Below are positions 1,148 to 57,162 of a stretch of 64,000 nt of DNA, one piece after another. Each line of letters begins with the position of its first letter. Positions within the stretch are counted from its first letter, which is position 1. The DNA is from Moniliella sp. 'wahieum'. Taxonomy: Eukaryota. A program made the translations under genes and the position numbers. The DNA is taken from positions 372,001 to 436,000 of the forward strand of contig RSEE01000041.1 of assembly GCA_003971905.1 (NCBI GenBank). Direction: 5' to 3'. The notes below the pieces were generated by a model. The model was not told where the DNA came from. It saw only the letters and a list, made by a program, of their open reading frames with translations, and ran no database searches.

Positions 1148-2384
1148 TCCGCGGCCGAGGGACGCGCCGGTCGTGTGCGAGCGGGGTGCGGCTCGGGGCC
1201 AGTGTGGCTGCCCGCCCGCTCCAATTGCAATTGCAATTGCAATCGCAATTTCCATCCCCAGTCCCCACTCGCCCGGGGCGATCCCAATCCCATCCCACAC
1301 ACAGATTTCCCATCTCACCCGCCCTTCCGCACGGGCCTGCCCAAGCCGAGCGGGAGCTACTAGCTACGGGCCATGGACGCACCCCAGCCGCTGCTATCGA
1401 CCCGCTCGGTAGTATCCAATCCGTCCTCGATCCGCACGGAAAGGACTGTGGCTTTCAGATGCCCCTCCCAGATGCCCCCCTCGAACCCCCTCGAACCCCT
1501 TTCGAGGGGAACACATGTAGACGTTTTTCTCAGGCCTCAGCCAACGGTCCGGTCACCTGTCACCTGTCACATGTCACATGTCACTGTCACATGTCACCTG
1601 TCCCCGGGGGGAGCCCGTTGAGTTGAACGTTTGAACTACGGTGACCAAGTAGGGTAGAATGAGTGAACACCCCCGCCATCACTGATGGTCGATGGATGAG
1701 TCGATGAGGTCCTCGGCCTCGTCTGCATCGATCATCGATCACCATGTGTCATGCATCATGCGTCATGATCTTTTTCCTGTCCTTACCCTGCTCATCGACA
1801 CCGCTCAGCTGAACTCGATCAGGGTCCGACCGCACCGCCCAACACGCCGCCCCGCTCCCGGTGCACCTGTCATATCGTCCGCAACCAGCCCCCAGCTCCC
1901 CACCAAGTACTAACCCACGCGGCTCCCAGGATCTCGCAGCCCCCCCCAGCCAACTCTGCGGAACCGCGTCTACCAAAACGACCCTCGCCCCATCCTCTTA
2001 TTCGCACGCCCCTTGCCCGGTGCCATATATCCCACCTCTGGGGCCACCTAGTCGGACGCCAATGATTAATGAGCAGCTACAACTCAGACTACGCGCAAAA
2101 GCTCAGTGGCAAAAACAAGGAATATCAACTGGATCTTCCCGGTCCAAGCGGCCAGAGGGTATAGGCCACCAAGGGTAGGGGCGGACAGGAGAAGAAGGGA
2201 AGCGTAGGAAAGGGGAACCAAAGGCGAAAAGAGATGGAGCAAAAACATGAAAAACAAAAAAGCAAAGATTTTAGGGGGATCAGGCTGGACACTGGACCTC
2301 AGGCCTGAGCCTGAGAGGCCTCAAGGCCCGAGGGCTGCGACCGCCGTGATCGGTCATGTTGCGGTGACCGCCCTAAGGAGGGCC

Positions 2385-8427: not shown

Positions 8428-8644
8428 TGTTGGGACCCGTGGTCCCGTACTTAGGCCAAGGCGCCTCATCACCCTTCACCCCTGATTTGTCCTCCGAAGC
8501 CTCCACGTGTATACTCAGGCTTGTCTGAACCCCTGTCTCTAGGTGTGGCACAAGGCTTAGACCTTAACCACCACCATCGCGATTGCATTGCTCTACATTT
8601 CCAGAGGTTCTTCACCCAATCCCTTGGGTTCCTCCGGTCTTACA
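8428..8644 (+). repeat. 5' LTR
   Basis: TGTTGGGACC...GGTCTTACA; identical by eye to 13768-13984. Confidence 0.96.
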
Positions 8645-8750
8645 GAGTTACAATCCTCTTGACGCTCAGCCCTGAGCCTTCCACTCTTACACTCTTCGGT
8701 CCTCCGCTGCCGGCCCTATCCACAAGCGCTTGCTCGAACTGCGTAAGCTA

Positions 8751-11700
8751 ATGGCAAGCATCATGAGCTCTCAGACTCAGGAGTCTTGGTTCAACTCCTC
8801 AACCCCTACTTCACCAACTGCCGGAGCAGAAGAGAGCACCACTCCCGTCGGAGTTGACCACGCCTCCCCGCCGCTGACACCATCGCGTGAATCTACCCCT
8901 ACACCTCAACCCACCCCCGTGGGCCCCGACAACACCGCGAACGACGTCGCCACCCTCGCCGACCGCATTCGCAACATGTTCAAATTGTTTCCCGAACACA
9001 TCACCCTCAAACAGCTACAGGACACTGGTATCAAGCTTGGGTACAGCGAAAAGACGACCACAGAAGCCATTGTCATGTTATCATGTGAGAATCCACCCAA
9101 TGCTAGCAAGAACGAAGGTGCCTTATCGTCAACTCCGGCCGTCGACGACAACCCGTGGGCTTTGACTCCCGACAAGCTCCTCCGTAGTGCCACTCGCAGC
9201 AACGTGCCGTACCACGAGCGTTTCCACAACAACAGCTCGTTTTGGTTATGGACCCGGATCTTCCTCCCTCGTATCCAGATTATCCCTGGAGCGCGTGAGC
9301 ATCTGGAACAGGGCAAGGCCCTGGACGGGTATAACGCAGAACTGGACGCTCACTTGGCCAACATTCTACTCCCGTGGATAGACTCCGACGTCGTCCAGCA
9401 GATCACCGGCGATGGCACGCCGGCTCTAGGGTCTGCATACTATCATGCTCTGCGTGATTTGTACGGCACCGTTTCAGACACTGAGATCTGTGATATCCTC
9501 ATAAAGGTTCTCACTCTCAAAATGGGCACCAAGTCGGGCCGCCAATACCTGAATGAGTTCACTGTGGCGGTAACCCAGTACGAGATGACGTCCAAGTCCA
9601 AGCTGGACGAGATTGGTCTAGCACAGATGCTACGGAAAGGCGTTACTGATCAGGGGTGGTTGCACCTCCATCGTAACAGCAGCTACGCCGAATTGCGCCG
9701 AGCAGTGAGCGAACTCAAAGGCTCCAACTACGGCAGTACCTCCAGTTCAAGCCCAGCTCCCTCCAGTACGGCCCCTTCGGAAGCCACGTCGCACAGCCAA
9801 ACAAGCAGTACGGTGACAGGCCGCGGACGAGGCCGAGGTGGCAGCGGGTACAGAGGAAGTCACCGTGGTGGCCAACGTGGCGGCCACTTTAGCCGGCCGG
9901 CTACGACAGCCCAGACCACCTCATCTGCCCATGCAGTAACCCCTATGGCAGCCACTACACCACCCAAGCCAGCCAACCTCCCTGCGCAACACGATTCAGG
10001 TGCGAGACCATCCGTATTCAATGAACGAAGTGCGTTTATCAATCTTCGTCCACACCGCGAGCCCATAGCAGTGGCAAACGGACAGATCGCATACACTGAA
10101 GGCATTGGCACCATCTCTATGTACATTCAAACCCAGAACGGAGCCCCTATCCGCATCCACCTACCCGGCAGCTTGTACTGCCCCACCTTCCCGACCAACC
10201 TGCTCAGCGCTTACCATCTATCTATCGCAGGCATTGGCAGCTGGATCCCTCCAGGTGGCCATGGTCTCTATCTCGGACGACACGGCGAACCTTTTCGTCT
10301 CGCCGCCGACTCAAGCTATTCCCTTACTCTGGCGCCCAATACGACAGCCACAGCCAACAGCGCCACTTCGCTACTCAACCTTGATGCAACCCTGGTCAAG
10401 GTGAAAAACGCCCACATCCGATGGAATCATGCACCTCTAGATCAACTTTCATCCCTCACGTCGGATGACCCAGCATTCGAACGGGTCAACAGTGGCGACA
10501 TCGCTTTAGTCCGGTCCTCGTGGCACTGTGCACCATGCGCATTAAGCAGAGCCACTGCCCCACCCCACGCCACGACTGGACGCCCAATCCGAACCATTCG
10601 CCCTTTCTCTCTCCTCCACCTCGACGTCCTTGACATATCCCGCCAAGGCGGCGGGGTCATACTTACGCCCTTATCATTGTCGACGACTTTACGCGGTATA
10701 CCTGGACGCTACCCCTGGTGTCCAAGGGTGATGCCACAGCCGAACTTCAAGCCTTCATCCGGCGCGAGCATCGCCAACATCCCGACCGCCCCCTTCAGAC
10801 GGTCCGCTCTGACAATGCGCCTGAACTCACCACCGCAATGGACGAGTTTTACTGCGAGCTGGGAGTAGTGAGCGAGCGCACCAATCCTGGCGAAAGTGCG
10901 TCCAATGGGGTCGCCGAACGCGCCATAAGATCGATTACGGATCGCGCTCGACTCATGGTAATCGCCAACAGATTGACTCCCGACGAGTGGTGGGAACACA
11001 GCTTGTTGGCGGCCACATATGCACACAACCAGTCGCCGCCGAAAGCACTGGGTGGGGACAGCCGATTTGTCCGGTACCATGGCTTCAAACCCTCCCTTCG
11101 CATGCGCGGTTTTGGCACTCTTGCCTACCTGCACCTATTGCCCAACCAACGCGAGGGCGGCAAACTTGGTCCGCGGGCCGTCCCAGCAATGTTGGTGGGT
11201 TACGGGCACGGCCGCGGTTCGAAGGGGTGGCTCTTTGCCATCCACCAGGACGACGGCCAAGTTGGATTCCGTTGGAAAAAGCCGTCCACCTGGACGCATG
11301 TCCCGTACACCACCGAATATCCCACGCACTTTCATCTGGACCCCCTTGTCCCTGCTGGTGGCGGAGAGGTGGGGGGGCGGAGAAATGGGTGCTGGTGGGA
11401 AGTCAGACAGCTCCCCACCCCGGCGTGTGCGTTTTGCGATAGATGAACTGACCCGCGATACTAATGGTAAGAAAGACAATGCCCCCCATGGAAAAAGAAA
11501 ATTAAAAGAACGAAAAACAGAGGCACATCGCCCGGCTCAAGCCAACGAAAATGAGAATTCAGAGCCTGGCCCCACTCCCACCAACTCCAACCCCCCACAT
11601 GTATCCCCCCAACCTGTTGCATCTGACCCCGCAGGCATGGCACAACGCCAGGCAAAGCAAGCCGAAGAAAATGAAACTATCACAGAAGATGCCGTTGACA

Positions 11701-13702
11701 CTGGCCACCAAGTCCTGCTTTCCCCTCCCTCTTCCACTTCCCCTTCCTCTCCCGCCCTATCCCCCTCCCCTCTCTCCCCCACCGACACGCTCGCCCCCGT
11801 GACCGTGCCCCTGACCGATACAGCCGTCCCCGCACTCGTGCGTCGCAATCCCGTTCGCCAAGCGCGTATCAACGCTCCACCCCTCGACCTGTCCATTCCA
11901 GCCAACGACAATTTGCGCGATGGCACCTTTTCCCTGCTCGTCAACAAGGCCCCTAGCATCTTTGGCAACCCGGCCGCCCTCTCCGCCCTAGGAATGCAGG
12001 CTTTGGTGAGTATTTTCGGACCAGCGCCGGACACATCCATGCTACCTGCTTCGGAGCCAAGCTCGCCCCCCATTGCACTCGCAATCGAATCCGCGGCAAG
12101 TGACACCGAGGTCATACTGACCACCGATGGGGTCCCGGTGGCCCCCAAGAACATCAAGAAGTTGGTGGGTCACCCTGCCTTTGATGGCGTACTCGAGGCA
12201 ATGCGCCTCGAGCTTCGGCGTTTTGACGAGCGTGACGTGAAGGAAGTTGTACCCATCCCCCCAGGGATCAAACCCCTTCCCGGCATGTGGGTCATAGGTA
12301 CTAAGACGGATGCGGATGCTAACTTCCTCAAGTACCGTGCCCGCTACGTTGTGGGAGGGCACCGGCAAGTTCCTGGCACATGGGCGAAATCTTTTGCTCC
12401 TGCCGTTCGTACTGCTGCCGTCAACACGCTAATTGCGTTGGCCGAAGCTGATGGCCTCCACTTATTTTCTGCCGATGTGGAAGCTGCCTACCTCTATGCC
12501 GATATCAACGAGCTCGTCTATGTTCGACCACCCCCCTTCTTCCCAGAAGCGCCCGGTCATTGCTGGAGACTCAAGAAAAGTCTCTATGGCCTGCACCAGA
12601 GCGGGGCCAACTTTGGAGATTGGCTCCGCACTTTCCTTTGCGACCGACTCCACTTCACTAGCCTAAAATCAGAGCCTTGCCTGTTCATACGTCGCACCGA
12701 ACCTCTTGGCCTGATCCTAATCGCCGTCCACACTGACGACTTTTTGGTCGCGTGTCGGTCCCAAGAAGCGTATGATGAATTCTTAGTGGAATTAAGGCGC
12801 AGCATCCAAATTAAGTCCAACGGCCCCCTACGTTTCCATCTCGGCTGCCAATACGACCGTATCGATGGACGACTGTACATCAGCCAACCCAAATTCATCG
12901 CTGAGACGCTTGCCGCGCATGACATATCACCTCACCGGCCCCGCTACCTTCCAATCGGCCACCAACTTCCGCCTCCCAAGCGACCCGAACACGAAAAGCG
13001 TGCCACTCGAGACGAGCACCGTGCCTACCGTTCTATTGTCGGATCCAGCTTGTGGGCGGCTCGTATGTCCCGGCCTGATGCCCTCTTTGCGGCTACCTTT
13101 TTAGCGCGGTTTATGGACGACCCGTCCGCCCCCACCGACGCGCAGCGGAGGACCTATTACGTTTCTTCGCCGGTACGTCTGACTACTCTTTGTGCCTCAC
13201 ACCCAACCGATCTCGCCCTCTACTCGAGCTGCACACCGATGCCTCCTTTGCATCAGACAAGAGCAACTCTCACTCCGTTTCGGGCCATGTTGTTTTTGTT
13301 TTCGGTGTGCCTGTATCCTGGGGCTCCAAGTCCCAAAATCAAGGTGTGAGCAACACAGCAGCATCTGAATACCTAGCCATGGGAGATGGCCTTCGAGATG
13401 CTCTATTCATTCGCAACATACTGTTTGAACTTGGTGTCTGCAAGGCTAATCACCCGATTGAGCTCTTTGTTGACAACACCGCTGCCAAAGCGTTGGCCGA
13501 AAAGCTCGGCAGCCTAGGCAAAATACGGGAGATTGACGTCTCGTACCACGAGGTGCGGGAACGCATCCACCGAGGCGAAATTAAAGTCCACTACACTCCA
13601 GGTGCACACCATCTCCCTGACTGGTTCACCAAACCTCTTTCTCTTCCCAAGATCATTTCTGCGCGTAACAATTTCGATTTGGCTTCTCTTTCTTCGCGCT
13701 GA
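8751..13702 (+). CDS. Copia Gag-Pol polyprotein (about 3 frameshifts)
   Basis: Protease HDSGA; HHCC zinc finger HIRWNH...CAPC; integrase core LLHLDV / VRSDNAPE / SNGVAERAIR and GKLGPRA; RT KYRARYVVGG, ADVEAAYL, LKKSLYGLHQSG, VHTDD; RNase H LHTDASFA...SVSG...ASEYLA...FVDNTAA...DWFTKPL. Confidence 0.93.
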
Positions 13703-13767
13703 TCCCCTTTCTACTTTTCTTTTGTTGATGGCCAACGGGCTTCTTTCGTTCCCTTGGCCCGGGGGGG

Positions 13768-13984
13768 TGTTGGGACCCGTGGTCCCGTACTTAGGCCAAG
13801 GCGCCTCATCACCCTTCACCCCTGATTTGTCCTCCGAAGCCTCCACGTGTATACTCAGGCTTGTCTGAACCCCTGTCTCTAGGTGTGGCACAAGGCTTAG
13901 ACCTTAACCACCACCATCGCGATTGCATTGCTCTACATTTCCAGAGGTTCTTCACCCAATCCCTTGGGTTCCTCCGGTCTTACA
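13768..13984 (+). repeat. 3' LTR
   Basis: Exact copy of the 5' LTR, preceded by GGGGGGG and followed by the TSD. Confidence 0.96.
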
Positions 13985-16039
13985 GAGCTTGCATTGCTGG
14001 AAAACGAAGCGCGTCGGAAAGGGTTGAACGGCAGGAAAGAGACAGTCCTATTGGAACATTAATCGATGAAGAGATTGAAGCGATTGGCAACAACCTCGCA
14101 ACACGACCCAGTCTCTTGCGCGGACACCGCTTAAAAGTCCAGACCGCAGTGCTGGGTGAGGACAGTGTGGAAGAAAGAAGAATACAAGTAGAGAATCAGC
14201 GAGCTCGTACCGGCACATACACCCCATGTGTGAACGGGGCTAAATCTGCTATCCCGGTGATGTAGTTGGACTTCCAGAGACTCACCGGCCATCGATGAGG
14301 TGGGCGTTTCCATGTTGTCTGCAGGCGCCCGCAGTGTTGCGCATCGTCAACCACAGCACCATTGAGACAGGGAAAAGGGGAACTCGATGCTGCCCTTTAG
14401 AAACCGGATACGGAGAAGGGAGGCTGTGGGGTTACCATCGATGAAGAGGCAAAACCCCAATATACCCAAAACTACGGAGGGTATTTTGCCCGAACAACGC
14501 CACATATACCCAATAGTGAGATGAGAAGCGGTACGTGTTTGAGTATAGTACTGAATCACCGGTGTATACAATCGAGTATAACATTGAATAGGGAACAGGC
14601 ACACGCTGCCCATGTCGCAGTCCGAGAAACGAGGAAGCCAATCTTCACAGGTAAAACATGTCCCTTGTTAGGGGGAACAGTGCGATCAGCTTCTCGCCAT
14701 TACACAACAGGTATTAACTGAGGTTCAGTCCAGCGACAACAATCATAAACTTCACGCCACGTTCGGCGACAAGGATCAGTACTCGTTCCGCCGCGCCGCA
14801 GCACCCGCCAGCAAGATCTCAAAGAAGGGCATGGACCAAGGCCAATGAACATTGACTCACCTTCGCCTTTTCACCATGACCATGACCAAACGGGAGTTGA
14901 GGGAAGTATATAATAGCCATAGAAACAACAGTCCTCACTCCGGCTTCTTCTTCTTGGCGGTTTATTCCTCTTCGTGCACCGCATTCTTATTTTTGGTACG
15001 CACAACTTTGGTCTGCTTTGTGCCCGAATGCCTCATGAAGGAGTGTGGTCCAATCTCCTTTCTTGAACCGTCCCCAGCCCAGTCAGGAGAAAAAACCTTG
15101 TGCAGTGCTCTATAGCTTGCAGAGAATGAGGAGTGGGACCTGTTGGGGCCAGCCCCTGTACCCTGAAGCCACTGGCGTGGGTGGGCAATCGGTACACCTG
15201 TGAAAAGGTTTTCGGTTACGAGACTATTCTATAGCGTAACAGCATCGGCCAAGATAGAGATCACAGAGAGAGGTGGCCTGACCCCAAAAGGGTGGTAACG
15301 TGTATGCATACGCCAAGTCCCGCCAGTATGTATATCCACAAGTAGGGGGAGCGTGGGGGGGACTTGATGAGATACCCAAAGCTTGGATGGCCCCCGGGCG
15401 GGCGGTCGATGCAATGGCACTGGTGGTGATAATGGTCTACATCACCAACAACCCCTATACGGAGGGACATATAACCAATCAAGCTCAGCTAGAGTGTTGT
15501 TGCCGCCTTCAAGTCTCTGAACGTGTTGACTACGGAACAAAGAATACAGATGTATAGTACTACTAAAAGAAAACGGCACACGGAGCTTTTATATATAGGC
15601 CTCACACACGGTGATGGGACTGAAAGAACCTTGGCCGAAAACGCATGAAGCTAGCTCATGAAGCTGATGAAGCTCATGAAGAGAGATCCTGTGTGTGGTA
15701 CAAAAAAGAACTGTTGTTCATGACATGCAACAACAGTGCCGTCAATCCGGCCAATTGGTTATTAGGGGTTAGGTACCACGACCGTCGCCCCTAATGCCCA
15801 AGAGGCCCACAACTGGCCTAATACTCATCGCGGGTGCTAGTACTAACAGCCGCATTGTCTTGCATCGTGCACCACCATGCATTTTATGCGTCCAGCTTCA
15901 ACACAGCAACGTCAGGACACGTCGCAGCCGCAACGCAGACGACAGCAGCTTGCGCTCGCATCACCCCGGCGCAGTCTATCGACACAACCGTAATCACTAA
16001 GCTGTGCCTATTACATGTACAGAAGAACGTCAAAAAATT

Positions 16040-16124
16040 CTCTCCGACCGGGAATCGAACCGGGTCTCGTCCGCACGCCTGTTCACATGACAGGGACGTG
16101 TCATAGCCACTAAACTATCGGAGA
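16040..16124 (-). tRNA. tRNA-Asp(GTC) with ~14-nt intron
   Basis: Reverse complement: TCTCCGA TA GTTTAGTGGCTATGAC A CGTCC CT-GTC-A[TGTGAACAGGCGTG]C GGACG AGAC CCGGTTCGATTCCCGG TCGGAGA G. Acceptor stem pairs; a T6 Pol III terminator follows (A run at 16032-16037). Confidence 0.93.
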
Positions 16125-17269
16125 CGCTACAAGTCACTATCACCTTAATTTCATGTATACTCACTAATAGTAATGCAATTGAAAATGCCGCGTGAGGAAG
16201 AGTATCCCTTTCCGACAGATTGTATCTTTTGCCTCTTGTAAAAGAAGACGAGGTCTACAGATAGAAAGGGAAAGAGAGAGAAGGTGATGGATCTATTCCA
16301 AGAGAGGAGCCCGTTAGGGGCAGAAAATAGGGGAGAGTCGGATAGAACAGCGCCATGTGCGATGTGTGTGATCAGCTGCATGCATGATGGCGCTGACACC
16401 TCTTTCCTCATTCTCGACGTTGCGTATACTGCATCCATAGTATCATTGACAGAGCTTAAGGCTGGGACAGGGAAACGCTACGCCTAACCCGACCCGTTCA
16501 GCTTGTGTGAGTTACTTGGTAGCGCCACCACTGCTAGCGAACCAGGGGGATCGCCAAAGAGGATATCAGGGCCCTCTGTGGTGCTCGCCATCCGCGGTCC
16601 CACCGTACCCGAGGAGTAGCGCTTGTGGATAAGGATGAACGTGGTAGGCATCCGAGCGAGGAATCATTTCCATTGAGATTCAGTAGCCAAATCGTTCCAG
16701 TGCGTAAACATCTTGCCCGCTATCTTGGTGCCGTAGTATCCTCGCGTCGTCAGAACCACGGGGAAAATGGCTCTTGAGTGATTCCCTGGTACTTGACAAT
16801 CTTGTCGCATTCTGCTTGTTCCAGCAGCAGAAGCAGCTCCTTCTCCCGACGTTCCAAGGCCTCGTGGTGCTCTCGTGCACCACCTTCCGGCCTAAGTGTC
16901 GCGCAGCGTGTGGTCCACACCTCCATGCCTGATCCTCTGATTGCTCCAGGCCCCATGACGCGGTAGTCGGTGTGCAGTGCCCTCCACCAGCGCCTCGACC
17001 CATCCCCTTCCCCCCAGCAGGTTGTTGCGAACGTGGGTGTCGGGGATGAAGCGCACGAGCTGGAGAATGGGCTCCCGTGCTGCCTCATGCAACCCGATAA
17101 ACAACAAAAGTCACCCGTGTAATCCAGTCCTATAGTCCCGCCCGGCGGCCCGCTCCTCCCAACAGATATACGCCCGCACGCACGCACACACTTCGTTCTT
17201 GTGGAGATGAAAAATGACACAAGTCAACACATATGTTTCCCAGAACCCGGTGTTTTAGAGGGCAGTACT

Positions 17270-17535
17270 ATAGGGTTCCCCTGTACGGCCCTCGGCAGTG
17301 GGTCGACGGTGACGCGTGACGCTCACTTAGCCAGCCGGAAGAGTTCCGCTCTCGCAGGCCGCGTACGCCCTGCTCGCTCCATCTCCCTCTCTCTCTCCTG
17401 TCGCCTTCCCTTCAGACGTTGATTAATGATTGAAGACTTGTGGCTCATCACTTTGCCTTCACGCCTTTTTGTCTGTGAAGGCTGGTTTGCAGCTGATCCA
17501 TAGGATCGCGAGTGCTCCCAAGTCGCACTCTATAG
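17270..17535 (+). repeat. Dispersed ~270-bp repeat, copy A (relatives at 34870-35415)
   Basis: Shares the blocks GGTTCCCT..ACGGCCCTC, GACGCTCACTTA, GGAAGAGT, GCAGG..CCCTGCTCGCT, TGAAGACTTGTGGCTCA and CCATAGGATCGCGAGTGCTCCCAAGTCGCACTCTAT with the 35-kb copies. Confidence 0.88.
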
Positions 17536-19302
17536 CACCCGGCCCTAATCGATCAGGGGGGACTCATTAATCATTTTGTCACCGCGGGCGGGGCTCTTAC
17601 GTTTGTCCAAGCTCCCTTCAGTTCCTCCTCAGGACTCGGCCTGGGTCCCCTGAGCCTCAAGACTTCAAATCATCGGAGAAATATGTAGCCGCATGTGGTC
17701 GTAGGCCTCTATAGGCGTGAGCGCGTGAGCGCAAAAGCGTTAAAAACATGCCCGTCAAGTGCCGAGTGAGTATGTCGTGGGGTGAGCCCCGAGACGGAGC
17801 CCGACCCCGGAATTTAGGGGTGACCTGTGAAAGCCCTTGGACATAATGGCATTAGAGTTACGTACGCTAGGTCCTGATTCAGATCGTGTTTGAGTCGAGA
17901 GGGTGTAGAGGCAAGGGAGAAACCCTCTAGTTTGGGTGTGGCTGCCTGCGTGATGCAAAGTCCGCAGCTCAGACCTTCCGAGGTAGGAGCCGCGTACTTA
18001 CGTCGTATGACCAATTTGAAGGAGTCCACTGGATCTCCGAAGTTACTCTGTTCCTCACAGCGTTACCACACTCGGTACGCTGTAGTATACGCGGGAACAG
18101 ACAGAGTCATCCTAAAGAAGAAGAGCAAAAAGCGCTACTGATAGTAACCGCGGGGCTTGCAACCTAGCGTGGTCGACGTATAGAAGTCGTATTCGTAAGC
18201 GTGAGGGTGAAGAGTGGAGAGGAAGTCGGGGGAAAGACGTGGGGCTGGCGTGTGTTCGTTGAGAGATCTACGAAATGCGCGGGTTCGGTGTCCGAAGATG
18301 ATCGATGACTAGTGACTAGTGACTGTAGCACCCATAACAGAGTAATAGTGACTGAGAGAAGAGTTGGTGCTCTGCTGTTGCTGCATGTGTGATGCTAGCG
18401 TGACAATTAAGCTTTAAGTACATCATCTTAGACCTAACGTTAACCCTAATTAACCCTAAAGGGGAAACTTATATATACCAACTCAGACACGGAGAGGAGG
18501 GAGGGATTGATCGATTGAGTGAGAAACCCGGGACGAGGTGGTATAGTCGAAGGCAAAGCGCCACATACGCCACAGTTTGGAATAGCAGAGAATATAATAG
18601 CACGCCATCCCTGAGGCTGATGTTTCCGATATACGCTTGATGAAGCTTGAAGAGGGGGGGGTCTGGGCGGCCAGGCACTGTTATTACCGCACAGGATTAA
18701 ATGGAAAAAACCCACCCGCACCCAAGAGTTGGACATGATTGAGATGTAAGCCATTGTGGAGACGAAGCATGTCTCTTCGCGTCGTCGGCATATGACAAGA
18801 TCATGAGCGATCGATGAGATACAAGTTTATCTTATAGAGATGGGGGGGGGCAGGGAGGAACACACTTGTTTTGCGCGGGTATTAGACCACATCATCGGTT
18901 AGATGGTGACTTGAGGACGACAAGAGACATTCTCTCTCCAACGTTATGTCAGGCATATGCCTTTTGACCACAGGCAATGATTGATTATATATAGATATAT
19001 ATGATGCAGATATACCCCCTTTTCATGCGTGACAGACAATAGTACGTGGAAACGTTCCTATGCACTGTAGTGCTTCATCACTGTCTCTATCATTAATCAT
19101 TGAATCCTCTCATTAATCATTGAATACTTACTTTTAATCATGTCCCCTCTCATTAATCTCATTGGCTGTTGAAGATATCACGCACAACTGGCCTCTGATG
19201 ATCATCTGACGTATCTGTGATTATTGCCCGTATAGTACTGTACAGCGCACAGACACAGTTACTGAAAGAGAGAGGGACTATTTAAACCTCTCCCCCCAAC
19301 CC

Positions 19303-20510
19303 ATGTGGAGTACGGCTGTGAGTCCATTCAACCAGCACCTCCAAGATCCCAGCCACCATCATGAGCTTCCCCCTGCCCACACCCAGTATCAGTCCTACAC
19401 GGATCACCATCCATCGGTTGTACTGTGGATCCGAAGCAGCTGGTCGTGCCTATTAACACGGGCGCAGAGCAACCGAATTGTGACCTTCGGTCGCATTTAC
19501 TGCCACCCACGACCCCGCAACAGCTATGCAGCGTGCAACAAGCCACTGTTCACTGTCAGGGCAAAGCGACATCTCCAACAACTTTAACGCATCCGACAGC
19601 GTATCTGGCCAGGCTCCCGCGAGCCGCCGCCGAAGAGGTGTATCCAACCCCGAGCTTGATCAACATTTTGGGGGCCAACATGGAGCCCATGAAGGAGGCA
19701 ATGAAGCCATTTCCCCTGAGGGGGGCAACACTCATTATTGATTGAGTGCCAGGGATCTTAGACGAATTACGTTGGTACTTGGCCTCAACAACAATTTTCC
19801 CGGGGGACGCGGCATTACCCACTTCCCCTCCGGGGATATGGGATTATCCACGGATTCTATGCAGACACCGAGCCAAAGTGTGGGATTCAACGATGCTGCC
19901 CCTAATTGGTCAAGCCACGCCCTGATGCCTGGAGAACCAGGTCCTGCTGTGATGCCGTCTTCTCCGCAAAATAGCCAGGATTTCTCCCCTTATGTGGATG
20001 ATTCCCCTACTGTGGACGTCTCCCCCTGGAATTCAGTTGGATCCGATCCACGGCGTGGGCCGGGTCTGAGGACGAGTATAGTCCACTCACATCCTCGTCA
20101 CCTCAGACCACCAACTTAAAATGTTCAGGAGCCGTGCCCACCAAGAAACCTGGTCGTGCGATCTGCCATAATCCTGACCCCAAGAAACCGAAGGAATCCA
20201 AAATTCAGTTACAAGGGAAGCGCGTACCGTGCCCTCTGTGCCCGCAGAGGTTTACGCGGGTATCCAACAGAAATGCGCATCTCAAAAGTCACGATAAAAA
20301 TCGGGAACGTCCGCACAAATGCCCTCTCAAGAGATGTGTTAAGACCTATCTTCAAAACATGATCTCCAACGGCACGTGACCAGACAACATCTTGACCCGG
20401 ACAGAGAATATTTAACCCAGGCCGAAGATGATGCTATCAAGAACGCTTTGGAAAAAAACTTGTCTTCCAGCCAACTTGAAGACAGAGCGCCCACGCATGA
20501 TGAGTACTAG
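19303..20510 (+). CDS. C2H2 zinc-finger transcription factor (two C-terminal fingers), frameshift-fragmented or pseudogene
   Basis: Finger 1: CPLCPQRFTRVSNRNAHLKSH. Finger 2: CPLKRCVKTY/(shift)SKHDLQRHVTRQH. Stop TAG at 20508-20510. Upstream S/P/Q-rich ORF pieces; the 5' end is uncertain. Confidence 0.7.
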
Positions 20511-22443
20511 GCGCCGGGAATCATTCCAGTTTCCCTCATCGTGTGTAAGCCGTCGTCATCGGCGTCATATATACGTTTGGGGCTTTTCACACGGCGGTAT
20601 CTATATATACCCCCCCAATCCCCCCCCCCCCCATTGACCTTCCCTCCATCACAGTATATCTCCGGCCTAACATGTTGTGCTTCTTTCTCATGCCTCTCAT
20701 CGCTTGGATCTCATTCTTATATATCACAATACAACACTCGGTTTTGCATTGTTTCGCTCTCATAACACACACACTCTCATGGGCCTTCCTTACAATTGCT
20801 TTGTGTGTCCAACAAAACCACAGAAGATCGAGAGGTGCTTCTCAAACCACAGAGAGGAGATGCGGAGTTGTATTAACAAAGATCGATGCGACTGACGGAG
20901 GGGAAGATAGATAGATACTCGTTCCCAGCTATTCCCATATTCCCATAGTGTCACAGGAGATGATTCAGAACTTGTGTATTCGGTCACTGCCTTTTCTCCC
21001 GTAGGTTATACACACCTCTATTTTGTAACTATATCATTTTGACAGAGCTAAGGCTGGGACAAAGAAACGCTGCGGCTAAACAGACCGGTTCATCCGGCGT
21101 GTCGAGCTTATAGCGGAATTCGCAGCCCACCATCTCCGCGCGCTCAGCCCGGCTCTGCACTGCCCTCGTCCAACACCATCATGTCGAGCTCCGAGGACCT
21201 CTGCGGATGGGCGACAAGAAGGTAATTATATCGTCTGCAGGATGATTTACCAGTAAGCAGTCTGATCTTAAGGAAGCAGCCCACAGCATTGCAAGGGTGC
21301 CGCCAACAAGTTTCGTCTCGACAAGCGATACAACTAAGGAGAGGGGCGCATGCCATTTCACGAAGGTCGTTGAGATAGAGGTATCTTGTCGCCAGCTTGA
21401 AACGGCCCGGAAACCCCTATTGGGAGGCCAGCAAGGTTTTGAAGCTGGTGCGCCCTGAGCTTGCAGTCACAGCACTGGAAAGAAGGTGGTGCTCCTCCTC
21501 GATAAGGGCCAGTTCCGTCAAGCTTCGGATCGAGAAAGTCGATTGCAGAACTTCTCAAGAACGAGCCCATGACCGAGAAAAAGCCCTTGCTGACTATACC
21601 TTCAGGCGGCTGATTGGTACCTACAGGAGAAGGAGCCAAGGCGAACGCTTCCTCGACCCCATTCTTGCAGGGCAACTACTGACGTGATCTGTATATCCAG
21701 TACGGCTAGGCTGCCTGCGCGAGGCAGGCCAATTGGCTGCCGAAACGAGGCAATATCCTTTTTGGCGATTGAACAATGGGGAAAAGTAGCAACGATGAGT
21801 CTTGAATCCAACAATCTATTATAACGAGTTATGCGGTCAAGGACTACTATCTGAATGCGTAGGGCTTGTGCTATCTCTGCAGTGGTCATCCCCAATTTTA
21901 TTGCCTGTGGGCGGGCGATGGAGTTTTACGCGCAACAAGACCCTGCCTTCCCTCCAACGATGGAGGGAAGGTTCTTGAACAGCTTGCTCGAGGCTGCCGA
22001 GTCGGGGATCTAAACTAACTTTAACACCATCGTCCAGGACTTTGACCGTACCAAGCGTTTCCGGGGTTGACAGGACAGCCTCTCATCGAGATTAGAAAAC
22101 ACTTGCAACAGGAGCCCGACCTTTCTTAAGACTATAGCAGCTACGTTTGTTGTGTGGTTTGGTAGATGTGATGATTGATGATTGATGCATGTGGCATGAG
22201 GACACCCCGTAGGACAAGGGCACAGCGATCCTAGTGATCGGTTGGCCTTCCAGCGTCATGTGCATACTATCAGTGTGCATCGGGACCATTATGCGTTCAT
22301 TCAGTGGGTTAAAGTACCACAACGTTATCGTATTGGCGTGCGGAGGAATGGCAGGAGAGATATAAAATGATGGCGAAAGTTGGCGCTCTCTTTCCTCGTA
22401 CGGGAGTTTCGCGTCGGACTAGAAATTCTTGATTAGAGGAAAG

Positions 22444-34869: not shown

Positions 34870-35415
34870 GCCCTCCGCTTGCTTCTGTTGGAGGGTAGTG
34901 CTGGGTTCCCTTGCACGGCCCTCGGGGGATCGCGGAAAGAGTTCGCTCGCAGGGCGCGCGAGCCCTGCTCGCTTCATTTCCTTCTCTCTTGACGCTCACT
35001 TAACAGGGCGGAAGAGTCCGCTCGCAGGGCGCGGCGCCCTGCTCGCTTCATCTCCCTTCTCTCTCTCCTATCCTTCCCTTCAAGCTTCAACTCAGATGTT
35101 ACCTGAAGACTTGTGGCTCACCCCTTTGCCTCCATGCCTGTCTGAAGCCTCCGCTTGCTTCTGTAGGAGGGGAGTGATGAGGTTCCCTTGCACGGCCCTC
35201 TCGGTGGATCGGTGACGCTCACTTAACCGGGCGGAAGAGTTTCGCTCGCAGGGCGCGCGCGCCCTGCTCGCTTATGCCCCTTCTCTCTCTGTCTCCTTCC
35301 TTCGATTCAGATGTTGCCTGAAGACTTGTGGCTCACCTCTTTTGCCTTCACGCCTATCTGAAGGCTGCTTGCCATCATCCATAGGATCGCGAGTGCTCCC
35401 AAGTCGCACTCTATC
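34870..35415 (+). repeat. Tandem cluster of the dispersed repeat (2 units plus an internal ~75-bp duplication)
   Basis: Unit start GCCTCCGCTTGCTTCTGT recurs at ~34870 and ~35147; the GCAGGGCGC..GCCCTGC hairpin occurs three times. Confidence 0.88.
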
Positions 35416-35968: not shown

Positions 35969-36175
35969 GATTATTGGCGAGCCAGCCCCACCCAGCCAGC
36001 AGTAGGGTTGGGATCGGGAGCAGTAGGGTTGTTGGCAGATTCTGATGGGTACTCCGATATGGAACTAAAGGATTATTGGCGAGCCAGCCCCACCCAGCCA
36101 GCAGTAGGGTTGGGATCGGGAGCAGTAGGGCTGTTGGCAGATTCTGATGGGTACTCCGATATGGAACTAAAGGAT
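35969..36175. repeat. 102-bp direct tandem duplication (x2)
   Basis: GATTATTGGCGAGCC...GGAACTAAAG at 35969 and 36071, with one T/C difference. Confidence 0.95.
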
Positions 36176-40447: not shown

Positions 40448-43400
40448 GGTGTTCAGCGGGGGGGCGTGAGCGTGAGCGTGATCAAACGAATGTGTGTGTG
40501 TGGTCGAGGACCAGGGCGGGGGACGCCTGCCGGCAGGCGAGGGAGGGGGGGAGAGGGCCAAAAGAATGTGGGTGGGGCGCAGAGGCCAGCGAGTTGGGGG
40601 AGGTGGAGGCAGGGATCGCCGTCGTCGGGGGGGTCGAGGACAGCGGGACGGATGGCAGAGGGGGCGGTGGTGGTGGTGGAAAGCAAGGATGGGCCGATGG
40701 GGCGGGAGAGGAGGAGTAGGTGACTGGGGCACTGGAGCAGCTGGGAGCGGTGGGGCTGGCCTGGCTGCATGCCGCACCAGGCGCCAGGGCGCTGTGCCGG
40801 GCGGGGCCAGGCGGGGCGGGGCGCGGGGCAGTGTGAGGCAGACGGGGAGGGAGGGACACTGTGCGGGTGCGTGCCTGGAGCTGCCGTTTGCTGCCTGGGC
40901 GTCCTGGGACTGCCTAGTGCTGCCTAGTGCTGCTTGAACGGTGAACCCCCCCCGCCCCTTGCGTGGCGCAAGCAGGGTATGTGCAGCGGCCAGAGCAGCA
41001 GCACGCCAGTGTGGGCGGTGGTCAGCGGTGGGCCACCGGTGATGGCGGATGGCTGATCGATGATGCCTGGATGCGCTGACGCATGCGCAAAGCACACGAG
41101 ACACCCACCGCGGTTGGGCGAGTTTTCGCTGCCCGTTGGTGCCCGGGGCGTTGTTGGCCAACCCCGCCACACCCCAACCGCCGCCAGCGTGGGCCACCGT
41201 CCAGCGGCAGTGGCCTGGTGGGGGCGTTGGTCGTTGTATGCCCTGAGGCCTGAGGCCCTGGGGCGCTGAGGCGTGGCTATTGAATGGGAACGCACGGGAA
41301 AGCACGGCGCCCTTTCCGGCCGTGGGCGTTGCAGGACCAGGGAACAGCTGATCCTGATCGACTGACCTGCGGGGCCTGCCCATGCTCAGGCGTTTAGGGC
41401 TCAGCCGACGCAGGGCCTCAGTCTTGCGTGTTCCCCACCAGGGACTGGGCTTGGAAGAACAGTGGGCGTGGCATTAGGCTCTCATTTGTTGTTCTCCCAG
41501 TGCCAGAACAAATGACTGGCATTGAGGTGCTGCGTGAGGCCGAGGACGGCATGAGGCGTTGGTAGGGCCAGGGCAGGCAGCTCATGCATCATGCATCATA
41601 TGCTACCGATCATCGATCAGTGCAGATCCTCTCTGGCATCGTGCATGGTGGGCTATGGCGCCGCTGTGGCTGGACAGGGCGACGCGCACCGTTTGGGATG
41701 TGTGGCCGACTCAGGAAGCGGCAGGTCTCGATATCCTGGCACAGGCGCATGCCTGCGGTGGGCAGGGTGCCGACCCCCGAGTCCTCGGATGTCGGACAAT
41801 CGATCATCGATAATCGATAAGAGCTCACATGTCGCATGCCACAGCGGCGTGGTGCCCCTTTTTGCCCGTCTTTGCCTGTTTTGCCTGTTTTTGCCCGGCG
41901 TGCTCCACACAGAATTCAGCTGGGTGGGTCACCGTCACATGTCACACCAGTCGATGGCACACAGCCCGTGTCCCATGCCACGCCATCACAGTCAAGGCAT
42001 GTCACATGTCACATCCAGGGTCACATGGTCACAGCCGTCACACGTCAACTTCTGCGAGCCCAACATGCTATGTGATCGACACGTGATCGATGATCGATCT
42101 GATTAATGATTCGCCTCTTTCTTTTTCACGTACACGGCAGGTATAGCGAAACAGCAGGCACATTCCGTTCCCTAGGCTTTATTGCTTCTTGCGTAGCTCA
42201 AGTGCGGCATAGCAATACGACGCCAGCCATGCTGCTGATGCTCACAGTGCCCCTTCGTCGGGTGCAGAGAGAGTGGCGTCGCCAGAGCGGATAGCAGATG
42301 GAAATACAAAACTCAGGAGCACATTTTGTACTTCCACAGATACATCGCCCACCTTTTCACACACCTCTCTCGGGATCCTTTGATTAGCCTTTGATTGTTC
42401 CCATTCAATTCACTCGCTAGGCATAGTTGGGCAGAGCATTTTATGCTTTCGCACCACCACCACAGCTCGCCCGCAGGCCTGTGGTGGTGGCGACTGGCTA
42501 CCTACATAGTGTCCCCGTGTAGGTGTTGTTGCCAGATTGGGTTAGGCTATACAGCCGCAACTATTAATGCAACGCTTTTGCACCATAATCACGCCTGGAT
42601 GACGCTTGAGGTCAAGCTTAATCCTGAAGGCCACACATCAGCACTCCTGAGTGTGGACCCCAGGACTCCAGAGCTCATCAACAGAAGAGTAATACTTCTT
42701 TGCTCATCTCCAAAACAGTAAGCAAAAGGAGGATCATCTCGATCATCCAGCACTCTCAGATCTCACCTTTCACCGGCCGGCTCCCTCCCCCACCTTCCCC
42801 GCATCTTCTATCTCTCTCCCGGCGCATTTGTCAACACTATTATGAACGCCACTCCCTATCAAAACATATATTCTTTCGTCTTTGTAACCGAGAGACTGAG
42901 TCATAAAGCATAACCGTAACCCGCCTTAGTCCCCATTTTCCGTCCCCATTGTTCCTTTTTGACGAAGAAGACTTACCGTCGAGCGTGCTTCTCAATTAGC
43001 CACAAGCATTAACTCCGCAACCAATGCCAAACTCTTTACCATTATTGTCTTGAGGGATGGAGTGGTCGTCTTTTCTGGCTCCCAAATCCGAGACGGCCAG
43101 TTTGGCCGCTTTGTAACCACCATCGCATCTATTGATAAAAGAAGGAAAGTTGCTTTGGATGCACATCAGAGGAACTTTTTTGATCAATGGGCCTGTGACG
43201 CCCATGTGACGCGCACATTGTTCCTTTCACCCCCGCCTCCCAGGAAGATAGACTAAGAGGTGGTCTGTCTCAAGGCAAGCAGGCTTCTGATAATACTGGC
43301 TTGCTTCGGGACACTAGTTGATCCTGTCATCAGTGGTAACCCTGACTCATGTGGCAGAGTGCTGGCCTCTTTATAGGGGGTGGTGGGAGGGATTTGGCCT

Positions 43401-45338: not shown

Positions 45339-45646
45339 TTTTTTGTTTTTGAAGCTTCACATGTAAACAACGCATAGTCAGACATTGGGTCGTCGTCCCG
45401 GTGACTCTGTTGCCACCGATTTGCAAGCTTCATCACTACGAGGAGTAACTAGTAACCTCCGTTCGTAGCACCTGCCGCGAGCTTCACCAGCAAGCATCAA
45501 GGTCGACCGACGACTATCTGCAGACGTCTAGTACAGTCCCGGACACCAGCCCAAACCCAACCTTTCGTGGCTACCGACCAAGAGCTATGGCGACCCTATC
45601 CGTCAAAGGGGGAGATATACCAGAATCGATCGAATACGTAACGCCA

Positions 45647-48502: not shown

Positions 48503-49696
48503 GGTGGCGCACACGGACGCAGACACGACGGGGCGGGGAGAGGTGATGGGAGAGAGAGAGCAACGGGGCTGGGTGCGGTGCGGCGGCTCTTTGAGCTTTG
48601 GGTCTGGTCGGGCCAGCGGGCCTGGGGCGTGCGCGCTGCGGCCTGGCCAGGCTGGCTGCCGCCCACTGCTCCCTCCCGAGGCCAGGCCTGTGCTGGCCTG
48701 CCGCGCAGAGAAAAACCAGACGCGCCGCGGGAGCACACTGGCGCCGTGCCGTCTAAAGCTGACGTAACCACCGGACACTGGCGCCCTGCGGGCCGGCCGG
48801 GCAAGCCGTTTTCCCAACACGCTTGCGGTGTGCTCTGCTCTGGTCCCTCCGGCGGCAGGTGGGTTAGTACCAGTGTTGTTCTTGCATCCCCATCCCCAGG
48901 CGTTTGGGCTGGGGGTGGCGGGCAGCCCGACCACCACAGCCTCCCGACGGCGATCTCCCCAGCGCCCTGGGATGCCTCCTGCCGCGCTGTCCTGGAGGTC
49001 GGCTGCAAGCGACCCCTCTGGGTCCAACATTTCTCAGAGCTCCATCTAACCTCTCATCGATCGCGTCGCCCATCGACCATCGATCATCGATCATCCTGCA
49101 TCCCTGTCGTGCAACCCTACCGCCCCAAGGCCAATCGGCAGGCAGAAAGCAGGTGCGCAGCCAGAAATGTTCAAATCCCCTGTCACGGCGTAGACATGCC
49201 ACATGGCAGGAGGGCGTCTGATTTCCGTGTCGGAGATGGCGTGGCACCCATACGAGCGTTCGGCCCTAAGGCGTAGGCCTAACTCCTAACGCAGCAACGG
49301 CAACCAGCGCTCGTCCAGCGCCCAAGCAGCCCCGCCCCGCACAGACCGCAAAGCAGCAAAGCCGGGGCAAAAGCAGCAAGAGTGGCACAGGCCCAGTGCT
49401 GCTCCCACCACGCCCGGCGCTTGCCGCGGGCATAACGACCTCCCCCATCTCCCTCTCCGCCATCAGACCAGCCGGCTCAGTCCGAGTGCCCACTACACTC
49501 GCTCACGACTCACTGGTCCCTCTTCGCCCCCACGCCTCGCTGTCCGCCCCCCCAGTGCCCCCGTGCCACATCACCGATCATCGCACCCGTAACATACCAG
49601 GCCATCCCGCTGCTCTCGGTATAGCCCCGGCTTTCCCACAGCACCCACGGCCCCCCAACGGCAGGCATCCACCACCACCACCGCTCCTCTGCGTCC

Positions 49697-54334: not shown

Positions 54335-57162
54335 AAATGATGTTGTGATTTTGCTATTAGAGGAGTACAAAAGGAGTCTTCCACATCTATCACAGTCGGG
54401 GCTAAGGCGAGGGAGACCAGGGTCGGGACTAGGTCAAGGGTGTAACAATACTTTGTGGGGAAGAAGCAAGAGCAGAAGGCATGGTGCGAAGAGGAAGAAA
54501 CAGGGAAAGTGCGAGACGCTCGCGACAAAGAAATTGGAAATGGGAGCGAGGAGCGAGCTAAGATCAGCCAAACTATGACACCGAACCTGTGCTCCAATTA
54601 CCTGTTTTACATGTTGCCCGCCTCTCGTCTTTGGAAGGCTCGCATTACGCATTATGTCCATTCCACGCCCGTACTTGATCCACACACACCTCACAACCAC
54701 CCGTGCGCTTGTTACAAAATGACTAAGCTCGCTCCAATTTCCAATTCTGCATATCCGCCTGTGTCTCTCTCACCTTTCGCTTCTGTTCTCTGCCCGCTGC
54801 CTTCTGTTTCTTCCACGAACGATCTTGCCTTTCCCTTCGCCTCTGACAGGAGCTTGGTCTCCCTCGTTTAGCCCCAACTGTTGCACATTTTGCCCACATG
54901 ACGACAGAAGAGACTATTGGAGGGATATGCGCAGAGGAGGAGAGAGATGATCGATGACCTCTCTGCCGGTACCTTTTCTCACTGTTTGGTCAATATGTGG
55001 AAGAAGAAAAGCTATATATAGATTGCGCGGAATGTGTGCTGCCTACTGGGCGGACTAGGAGAGGGACTCTAGTGCACAGCTCCGATGCTCTCAAATATAT
55101 ATCGTTTGGTGCCGTGGCGTCTACCGATCTAATCAACAATCATTAATCAACGTTCAACGTGTTTTCAACCACCATCAAATCCGTTCTACGCTGTGGCGCT
55201 GTAGATTAGATACGCTTCTGAGCTTCCGACATCATCGACATCATCGCCCCATTGATGGAGACACATTTAATGTGTCAGCGCTCAGCCTGCAAGCTGCAAG
55301 ACCCTAATAAGCGCTCAGCCCCACCGGCCACCGGATAATGTTTAGGAACAGGGGAACCAGTTTCAACGTTCAACTTTTATTAACACTACCTGCGGGAAGT
55401 ATTTGTGTTGGTTTCCTGACGCCCTCACCTCCTCCAACTCCATATATGAAGACTTGGGCTCCCCACCGCCTTTGTCATTTGATCTCCATCGATTGCCACT
55501 TCGTGTGCTGTGCTCTCCAAGCTCTTTGTAGGGTGTCATTATACACGCTCGCCTGCCAAAAAGGGATTGCATATCAGCCGTTACATGTTACACGTCTCTA
55601 TCACACTCATCGACTCATCACAGCACTGATTTCTTGGCATTAATATCACCCCCCCGCCCAACGTGGTTGTGGCACTATGGAGGGCAGAAGGACGGCGGAC
55701 TATACATCGATCGGCTGCCTATGGATGGGGCCGGGTGGGGATCCGAGCATGCATGATGCATGACCGGGTGACCATAGACCAGGTGGCACCTGATTATCCG
55801 CATCCAAAAAAATACCCCCGCTCTTTCCAGGACTTCCGCGTTGCGCGTTCGCACCTTGGGTCGGATAGCCTACTCGGCTTACAAAGATCTATAAAGCTAG
55901 TCTACCTCAAGCTTCAAGCTTCAAGCCTCAGGCCTCAGGCCTCAAGCTCAAGCGTAAAAGAGCTAAGAAGCGCCTTTTTAAGCGCTTACTTACTTGCTTT
56001 AAGCACCAATGGCTTCCTAGCTTCCGGGCCTTTCAAAACGCTCCAAGCCACCTGTGTTGAAGAGTGTGAGAGTGGCTAGTGATGCTAGTGATGCATGATG
56101 CATGATGCATGATGCATGATGCATGGTGCATGATGGGTGATGCGTGGCTGGGACGTGTGAAACTTGTGAAAGACGACTCCCGGCCATGTCAGAAAACCCT
56201 GTGCCTGAGGCGTTTGCAATCGGCACGGGAGGTCACCGGTCAAGCTTCAAGGATGAATCATCGATGAGCGTGTACCATGAACTCCCAACTGAACCGCCGC
56301 ATCCGGGAAACGGCGGACCGCGTGAGCGGAACGTACACCCAGTACGCGCGTTGAAAAGCATGGCCAGGGTTAGACGTTAGCGCGTTAGCAGGGGCTAGTC
56401 TGTGGTAAGGTAATTTTTCAGGCTGGGAGCGCGCAGCAGGAGTAGCGTGGCGGGTGTGGGATCTGGTCTGAGCAAGTCAATGCATGTGGCTTCTTTCGCT
56501 GGACAGGAATTGAGTAGAGCACTACTACTGAGGACTCCCTGTCCTGAATCGAGGGAATCCTGAGTTGAGTACTGAGTCTGAGTACTACTGAGCTATTCAT
56601 ACTGAGTACGGAGTGGCAGGAGTAGCGCCGAGCGCCTAATAATGGGGGGGGCAGAGCTAGGCAGCAGGGCCCAGCACTAGGGCTCTCAGATCTCGTTGAG
56701 GCCGCTCAGGCACAGCGCCGCAGTGGCCGATTGTCGCCTGCGCGACCCCACATGGCAGAAACTCAGAAACCCACAGCTCAGATGGCACATGTGACATGCG
56801 TCATGTGATGGCTGCCGTGTCACGCGGGTCACGTCTTACACTGGTCTGGTGCCTGCTGCGCTCTAGCCCCTCGCGCGGCGGCGGGTTTGATTGTTTCATC
56901 GTTGCAGTTGGGGCCGGCGCATGCAATGGTTGAGCGTGGCCGGTGAGGCGGTGACCGGTGGCCGGTGACCGGTGAGCGCCCTGTCAGGAAAACTGGCAGC
57001 GAGCCACGAGCCACGAGCACCCGTCCTGGCCGCTGTCTTCCTCCACGCCCACACCCACGCCCACCGCATCCATCGCCCCTCGCTCGCCACCTCCGCTGTG
57101 CGCTCCCCCGCGCCACCACCACCACCACCGCCGCCGCCGCCCCCCCTCCGCCCCCGCCCACC

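Follow-up and report, generated by a model that had tools for sequence, protein, structure and literature searches.

The window analyzed here, i.e., the 64,000-nucleotide (nt) stretch of contig RSEE01000041.1 (Moniliella sp. 'wahieum', positions 372,001 to 436,000), is nuclear fungal DNA with a guanine plus cytosine (GC) content of ~57%. It carries genes supported by Pfam for SH3, tricalbin-like C2, NECAP/DUF1681, HAD hydrolase, V-ATPase subunit d, G-alpha, BAH, AAA ATPase, NAP, Myb, SOG2, DEP/RGS and EF-G proteins, together with one copia element. As the top named relatives of the NECAP protein all belong to the Ustilaginomycotina (Kalmanozyma, Sporisorium, Pseudozyma, Mycosarcoma maydis, Ustilago, Tilletia and Malassezia, with 62-68% identity), the host is, judged by this protein, a smut-related basidiomycete without a close named relative among the NECAP matches; one further match showed 89% identity. 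The non-coding DNA of the window contains short arrays in which a TNA triplet recurs every 7 nt, with 4-bp palindromes as spacers. The initial annotation had offered two readings of these arrays, i.e., a binding lattice for a factor that reads TGA/TCA half-sites at 7-bp spacing, or a mutational process that favors fold-back repeats. The results presented here favor a mutational process, but one of flank-templated steps of 7 nt rather than fold-back slippage, and do not favor the lattice. The arrays are a mutational scar, and their pattern is genuine, specific and far from random.

Many period-7 arrays were listed by Tandem Repeats Finder in the window. Perfect period-7 tandem repeats with at least 2 copies numbered 33, as compared to 4.2 +/- 2.4 in 30 dinucleotide-preserving block shuffles, and in 18 of these 33 the unit consisted of a 6-bp palindrome plus one base, an arrangement found in 9.9% of 20,000 random 7-mers from the window. 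These palindromes were all of the form A-NNNN-T, and no such bias was present in window tandem repeats with periods of 5, 6, 8, 9 or 10. A search for the pattern X-N-X' + 4-bp palindrome + same X-N-X' (primes denote complementary bases) yielded 67 matches, 58 of which had a T-N-A core (N = C in 29, G in 22, A in 4 and T in 3), against 2.25 expected from 20 shuffles. Control cores were not in excess over the same number of shuffles (ANT, 0 vs. 2.05; CNG, 5 vs. 7.1; GNC, 4 vs. 7.55), and palindromes of other lengths between TNAs were not enriched (2 bp, 9 vs. 10.2; 6 bp, 1 vs. 0.65; 8 bp, 1 vs. 0.05). The arrays that the initial annotation described are thus borne out, with an excess confined to the TNA core and the 4-bp spacer; 13 of the 16 palindromic tetramers occur as spacers (AATT, ATAT and TATA are absent).

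The autocorrelation of T[CG]A, which had been proposed as a check, showed the anticipated peak outside Pfam-supported open reading frames (ORFs) and copia (lag 7, 97 vs. 31 +/- 4.9; lag 14, 72 vs. 29.6) and none inside them, where only the 3-periodicity of codons was seen (lag 7, 21 vs. 14.2). The C or G in the middle of the core, also pointed out initially, is indeed there but mostly reflects base composition, as 72% of the available TNA sites (1322/1844) are already TSA (S = C or G); scar junctions comprised 46 TSA and 6 TWA (W = A or T) triplets. Most of the coordinates given in the initial annotation were correct, while four were imperfect, i.e., 33899 reads TCA GCGC TGG, and 2299, 30250 and 30531 have complementary cores (TCA...TGA).

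The matches were merged into 46 chains, and the bases flanking each chain were inspected. The palindrome proved to be set by one flank, as the loci read ab-TNA-b'a'ab-TNA or the mirror form TNA-cdd'c'-TNA-cd. Under the left rule, the two bases to the left of the first TNA are the last two of the palindrome, and under the right rule, the two bases to the right of the second TNA are its first two; the minimal structure is a 7-nt insertion in which a direct copy is joined to a 2-nt reverse complement. Of the 37 chains with two units, 12 followed the left flank only, 16 the right flank only, 3 both and 6 neither. The flank dictates the core in 31 of these 37 chains, as compared to a chance of about 1 in 8 for either flank. 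Same-TNA pairs at lag 7 numbered 110 (34 expected), and 52 of them followed the flank rule, against 0.15 expected; the spacers, which had been taken to be interchangeable, are instead templated by one flank. Analogues of the flank rule with periods of 5, 9 and 11 were not enriched. One product accounts for about 80% of the joints.

The N of the core, counted over the chain list, was not biased in orientation when left- and right-type events were compared; the target site is symmetric and each event is one-sided. Both outcomes occur together at a single ancestral site in three compound arrays, where left cores are mirror images of the left flank and right cores of the right one, i.e., the arrays at 18299 (18297-18324, GA TGA TCGA TGA CTAG TGA CTAG TGA CT, where the left core mirrors GA and the right cores CT), at 55140 (55138-55158, AA TCA TTAA TCA ACGT TCA AC) and at 56233 (56231-56251, GG TCA CCGG TCA AGCT TCA AG). 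Neighboring cores had the same N in 58 of 78 T-cored matches because the cores are copied from each other, so that the shared frame pointed out initially comes down to copying and not to a lattice. Neither selection for a motif lattice nor slippage in unit number fits such flank-templated one-step +7 insertions, and their strict confinement to TNA sites and steps of 7 nt speaks for an enzyme-defined cut instead of hairpin thermodynamics.

The main product alone is compatible with a 5-bp duplication plus two mirrored bases and cannot separate this from a 7-bp duplication; all products were therefore tabulated as a left copy trimmed or extended by l and a right copy trimmed or extended by r. While the main product repeats a 5-mer, the +9 and +8 products, which are rarer, retain ab-TNA-cd as a complete 7-mer with one or two mirrored bases added, and the plain +7 products likewise repeat the 7-mer. 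Seven loci with TSA cores had the structure 7-mer + 2 nt + 7-mer (+9), i.e., 19148-19163 (TCTCATT AA TCTCATT, the whole 7-mer and 2 mirrored nt), 24370-24385 (GTTCAGC GC GTTCAGC), 34016-34031 (GATGACG TC GATGACG), 37110-37125 (ACTCATC GT ACTCATC), 42732 (GATCATC TC GATCATC), 55230-55245 (CATCATC GA CATCATC) and 56078 (AGTGATG CT AGTGATG). The +8 products occupied six loci, two of them within 1622-1709 (GTTGAACGTTTGAAC at 1622 and GATGAGTCGATGAGG at 1695) and the others at 17716-17730 (CGTGAGC G CGTGAGC), 33210-33234 (an array of GTGACGCG x3), 42019-42033 (GGTCACA T GGTCACA) and 55605-55619 (ACTCATC G ACTCATC). The corresponding +8 and +9 table cells for the control cores AST, CSG and GSC held 0 to 1 loci. 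When all 7-mers repeated at distance 9 were considered, the intervening 2 nt were the reverse complement of an adjacent end in 7 of 8 TNA-centered registers, as compared to 5 of 43 non-TNA registers. Plain duplications of a TNA-centered 7-mer were found at 22170-22187 (GA TGA TT x2.7, no mirrored nt) and 31056-31069 (GG TAA AC x2).

Overall, the +9, +8 and plain +7 products show a duplication of the full 7-mer ab-TNA-cd, as is characteristic of integration with a 7-nt stagger. The palindromes have even lengths, and their centers lie exactly at the edge of the 7-mer; joints of the Ac/Ds type (c d' a' b) were absent (0) among the 110 same-TNA lag-7 pairs. Complementary cores occurred at 4 loci (0.5 expected), including CC TCA GGCC TGA GC, a 10-bp perfect palindrome (2297-2310), GT TGA ACGT TCA CG (30246-30259) and AC TCA GTAC TGA AC (30528-30541); these are only suggestive of a symmetric, deeper hairpin opening, as point mutations are equally possible. 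A 3-bp TNA duplication with P nucleotides was rejected on paper, since it predicts TNA-TN' joints and TNA-TNA numbered only 52 vs. 38. Non-coding T[CG]A pairs were also in excess at lag 9 (70 vs. 27.5), for which the seven +9 products account only in part; some lag-9 repeats have a palindromic 4-nt filler that fits neither flank (24091, TCGA; 36550, CGCG).

The remaining scars, all without an assigned strand, are described here by the flank that templated them. Left-templated scars are the array with CATG cores at 1565-1598 (TG TCA CATG TCA CATG TCA; TG TCA CATG TCA), AA TGA TTAA TGA (2061-2072), CT TCA AGCT TCA (35078-35089, only in one copy of a 3-copy repeat), GA TGA TCGA TGA (36283-36294 and again 54946-54957), GA TAA TCGA TAA (41809-41820), AG TAA CTAG TAA (45444-45455), CA TGA TGCA TGA (55752-55763) and GG TGA CCGG TGA (56964-56975). 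To these are added GA TCA TCGA TCA, which is combined with the array TCA TGCA TCA TGCA TCA at 41582-41621 and with the right-templated TCA TGCA TCA TG at 1730-1760, and TC TCA GATC TCA, which shares 42732-42765 with the +9 product named above. Right-templated scars are TGA CGCG TGA CG (17310-17321), TGA TTAA TGA TT (17420-17431, in one copy of the 3-copy repeat), TCA TTAA TCA TT (17564-17575, and twice within a 20-bp repeat at 19090-19121), TTA AGCT TTA AG (18407-18418), TGA AGCT TGA AG (18641-18652), the array TAA ACGT TAA ACGT TAA AC (23909-23927), TCA CTAG TCA CT (30882-30893), TGA TCGA TGA TC with TGA TTAA TGA TT (42084-42111), TCA GCGC TCA GC (55275-55286), TCA ACGT TCA AC (55363-55374), TTA CATG TTA CA (55581-55592) and TGA GTAC TGA GT (56566-56577). 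Within 41935-42013, the right-templated TCA CATG TCA CA (41935) is followed by TG TCA CATG TCA CA (42000-42013). Both flanks fit CC TGA GGCC TGA GG (41242-41255), and GA TCA TCGA TCA TC (49082-49095) lies between the divergent NAP and Myb genes. Within 56078-56121, the +9 product is followed by the longest array, TGA TGCA x4 + TGA TG. The 42-nt block at 55905-55946 (CC TCA AGCT TCA AGCT TCA AG|CC TCA GGCC TCA GGCC TCA AG) may represent a plain CCTCAAG duplication, with the joint AG|CC, whose copies were each extended, one rightward and the other leftward.

None of the 34 scar loci fell within Pfam-supported ORF segments and copia (22,062 nt, 34% of the window; P = 5.7e-7), in agreement with the absence of arrays from conserved coding sequences and the copia ORF that the initial annotation had noted. 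Scars in coding DNA would be lost through the frameshift that +7 causes, and their absence there also argues against an assembly artefact. In total, 34 of 1844 available TNA sites were scarred, while 9 of the 46 chains had at least 3 units; scarred sites are therefore hit again at about ten times the per-site rate, an excess to which slippage or local hot spots could contribute. Clustering of scar loci was weak (permutation p = 0.02) and is confounded by unrecognized coding DNA.

Perfect loci numbered 35 (0.2 expected) and one-mismatch loci outside them 32 (10.1 +/- 3.4 expected), while two-mismatch loci did not rise above background (118 vs. 105.5). This gives the process a certain time depth, yet many scars are young. 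A dispersed repeat of ~200 bp, present in three copies with 80-84% identity (17307-17533, 34990-35158 and 35202-35414, the last two adjacent), served as an internal clock for the scars. Relative to the other two copies, the one at 17290 has 7 additional nt precisely where the scar TGA-TTAA-TGA-TT (17420) lies, along with two extra substitutions, and the scar at 35080 is also copy-specific, in a messier alignment.

As a control, we analyzed 80 eukaryotic metagenome loci (695,354 nt) on contigs encoding NECAP relatives. Joints obeying the rule made up 20 of 1060 same-TNA pairs in these loci (0.029 per kb), as compared to 52 of 110 in the window (0.81 per kb), so that the density in the control loci was 28-fold lower. 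The closest control locus showed 61% identity over 1.7 kb; as none of the 80 represented a close relative on a long contig, these loci serve as a negative control only.

We hypothesize that the arrays represent footprints, stacked upon each other, of the excision of a cut-and-paste DNA transposon not present in the window, which makes 7-bp NN-TNA-NN duplications, leaves perfect hairpins on the flanks and went through iterated insertion and excision; this explanation is, in our judgment, probable. The element would integrate at NN-TNA-NN with a 7-nt stagger and thereby duplicate the 7-mer ab-TNA-cd. Excision, as the joints suggest, would seal each flank as a perfect hairpin, as in RAG and Transib, and a host nuclease would open these hairpins 2 nt from the tip, leaving 4-nt palindromic overhangs (cd-d'c' on the left end, b'a'-ab on the right end); an opening at 3 nt would make no difference to the product, as the T and the A of the core pair with each other. 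End joining would then keep one overhang and clip the other at the duplex border, so that ab-TNA-cd is converted into ab-TNA-b'a'ab-TNA-cd or ab-TNA-cdd'c'-TNA-cd and gains a net 7 nt. Both of these main joints are directly present as sequences in the window. Clipping of the mirrored half only would give the +9 product, intermediate clipping +8, opening at the tip the plain duplication, and a deeper symmetric opening (4-5 nt) complementary cores. Each product would hold two new NN-TNA-NN targets, one of them fully symmetric, to which further rounds would add identical units; perfect heptamer arrays could therefore grow, with compound arrays where the other overhang was kept.

RAG nicks DNA exactly at the border and Artemis opens hairpins about 2 nt off the tip; transposition by Transib and RAG yields 5-bp duplications, while the target-site duplications (TSDs) of hAT elements are usually 8 bp. 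The main product of the window is compatible with 5 + 2 bp, whereas its +9 products duplicate 7 bp, and its products indicate 7 bp rather than the 8 bp of hAT. Hairpin formation on the flanks, opening by the host and end joining form an established pathway of hAT, Transib, RAG and MULE (PMC5499845). V(D)J coding joints of RAG, and Transib, share with the process proposed for the window a perfect flank hairpin opened off-center, end joining and even palindromes centered at the exact former end (PMC5499845). Their 5-bp duplication differs from the 7 bp indicated by the +9 and plain products, and no genome-wide stacking of such joints into arrays was found in the full-text literature, from which subscription journals were outside coverage. 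Footprints of Ac/Ds and hAT elements in plants, S. cerevisiae and Candida albicans keep the duplicated target and carry short palindromic insertions from hairpinned flanks, the palindromes being centered on the complement of the element-adjacent base (PMC5873905). The window likewise retains the duplicated target as a direct repeat with P nucleotides templated by the adjacent flank, as is general for DDE footprints with flank hairpins. Because of the lack of joints of the c d' a' b type, however, its joint chemistry would appear, by analogy, to resemble that of RAG and Transib more than canonical hAT.

By duplication length, the nearest described candidates are hAT7 of rusts (Pucciniales) and Kyakuja of Laccaria, i.e., basidiomycete transposons with 7-bp TSDs (PMC12730594). 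They share the phylum and the 7-bp duplication, which for the window is deduced from the +9 and plain products, and the superfamily of hAT7 hairpins its flanks; on the other hand, they come from rusts and Agaricomycotina and not from Ustilaginomycotina, and neither element was seen in the window. Cryptococcus elements, with TA, 8-bp or 4-8-bp TSDs (PMC12810828), were ruled out as a match by these lengths, and Muta1 was ruled out as it excises mostly precisely (PMC5225508). A comparison of rice genomes describes small indels as footprints of DNA transposons, and self-extending heptamer arrays are not mentioned at the start of its abstract (PMC4423477). TNA-centered heptamer scars or arrays built from footprints were not found described in the full-text literature either (subscription journals outside coverage). 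Footprints with P nucleotides are known; what appears to be new is the target, together with the uniform joint, the density and the self-extending arrays.

Several observations weigh against the transposon footprint explanation. Segments ending in terminal inverted repeats (TIRs) and flanked by TNA-centered 7-bp repeats were not in excess in the window (2 of 1737 pairs scored at least 10/14, vs. 29 of 58,852 for other 7-mers), Pfam found no transposase domain in 12 + 106 window ORFs, and the candidate terminal motif CTCACTG was not enriched in the window (11 vs. 10.7). The ~0.8 loci per kb of non-coding DNA imply a very large number of fixed insertion-excision cycles. Ac/Ds footprints are heterogeneous, with 28 types in 128 clones in Candida (PMC5873905), and the window, where one product makes up ~80% of joints, is far more uniform. 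The evidence from paralogues is a single site with two extra substitutions, and the main product, taken alone, would be explained equally well by a stagger of 5 nt plus one-sided mirroring of 2 nt.

The main rival is a host process of break and repair without any mobile element, i.e., a domesticated transposase, a RAG-like nuclease or another TNA cutter with a 5- or 7-nt stagger, with hairpin formation or snap-back before joining. The lack of an element or transposase in the window, the extremely uniform product strictly tied to its site, the high density of scars and the equal fit of the main product to 5 nt copied and 2 nt mirrored would all suit such a process. A staggered cut alone, however, gives no hairpins on both ends, and the +9 and plain +7 products show the full 7-bp duplication typical of integration, so that we regard this process as a serious but rather unlikely source of the arrays. 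Both a mobile element and a derived nuclease are covered by a broader proposal, for which we see about even chances, i.e., that a very active cut-and-paste element of a smut-related fungus not previously recognized, or a nuclease derived from it, combines a 7-bp NN-TNA-NN target with perfect-hairpin chemistry of the RAG type and has left thousands of uniform, self-extending +7 scars in non-coding DNA.

Hairpin-prone microsatellites, through slippage of fold-back heptamers or template switching that perfects imperfect palindromes, are an improbable source, even though the units are nearly self-complementary (18/33), arrays of 3-5 units exist and slippage could explain why scarred sites gain units above the per-site rate. 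The majority of loci consist of just two units, and a single flank sets the palindrome in 28 of the 37 two-unit chains; unit number does not change independently of the flank, which sets the core in 31 of 37, and differing cores stand in register inside one array. Non-TNA cores and the period-5, -9 and -11 analogues, whose folding would be at least as good, show no excess, and a T-N-A turn with a 1-nt loop would probably be too weak for an unaided hairpin. Quasipalindrome correction by template switching turns imperfect inverted repeats into perfect ones; it differs in that it needs a pre-existing stem, and it leaves the +7 duplication and the TNA restriction unexplained. A selected cis-regulatory lattice, read by a putative factor with TGA/TCA half-sites at 7 bp, would be consistent with the intergenic location of the arrays, some of them in divergent promoter regions (49082, between NAP and Myb), and with their mild clustering (permutation p = 0.02). 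We consider it very improbable nonetheless, as the spacer is dictated by neighboring bases and not common between arrays, neighboring cores are identical copies, TAA and TTA cores also occur, many loci are decaying through point mutation, and absence from coding sequences is expected of any +7 indel; on the sequence data, a binding lattice does not seem to be needed to explain the arrays. An assembly or sequencing artefact is the least credible of all, since it would affect coding DNA equally, yet none of the 34 loci lies in that 34% of the window, and decayed as well as paralogue-specific copies exist.

A responsible element was sought among direct repeats of 7 bp that are separated by 40-12,000 nt and have inverted termini, and an inverted-repeat scan of the window revealed nothing element-like. 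The best TNA-centered candidate (14058-19098) was rejected, as local alignment showed no real TIR. The region 14000-23000 is gene-poor (GC about 0.50), almost without long ORFs and without a Pfam match; it contains seven scar loci and no recognizable element ends. The copia element is full-length (8429-13986), has 218-bp long terminal repeats (LTRs; TG...CA) that are 100% identical, a 5-bp duplication GAGCT and a gag-pol split across several ORFs, and looks very young. Its integrase was rejected as the agent because its own TSD is GAGCT and the identical LTRs are free of scars.

Other repeats in the window include a 102-bp tandem duplication with 99% identity (35969-36175), a G-rich 15-bp minisatellite, GGGGTGGGGAGAGAT, with about 9 copies upstream of the G-alpha gene (30047-30182), and a short interstitial, telomere-repeat-like sequence, TTAACCCTAA x2 (18440-18459). 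A hexamer array of the perfect palindrome CAATTG (1222-1250, 4.8 copies) stands out as the sole notable palindromic array with period 6, and the +7 rule does not account for it.

If the transposon footprint explanation is correct, the window would represent a dense, readable record of transposon traffic in one genome, with about one scar locus in each kb of non-coding sequence, from which the target NN-TNA-NN, the 7-nt stagger and the hairpin chemistry of the element could be read without experiment. The uniform joint would also inform hairpin opening and end joining in this fungus. With every scar serving as a fresh target, excision footprints would provide a route to tandem repeats, i.e., a new mode of birth for palindromic repeats, mainly in promoters and intergenic DNA; standard microsatellite surveys, which stop at 6-bp units, would miss these heptamer scars. 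As the scars are intergenic, they may represent a steady source of promoter variation.

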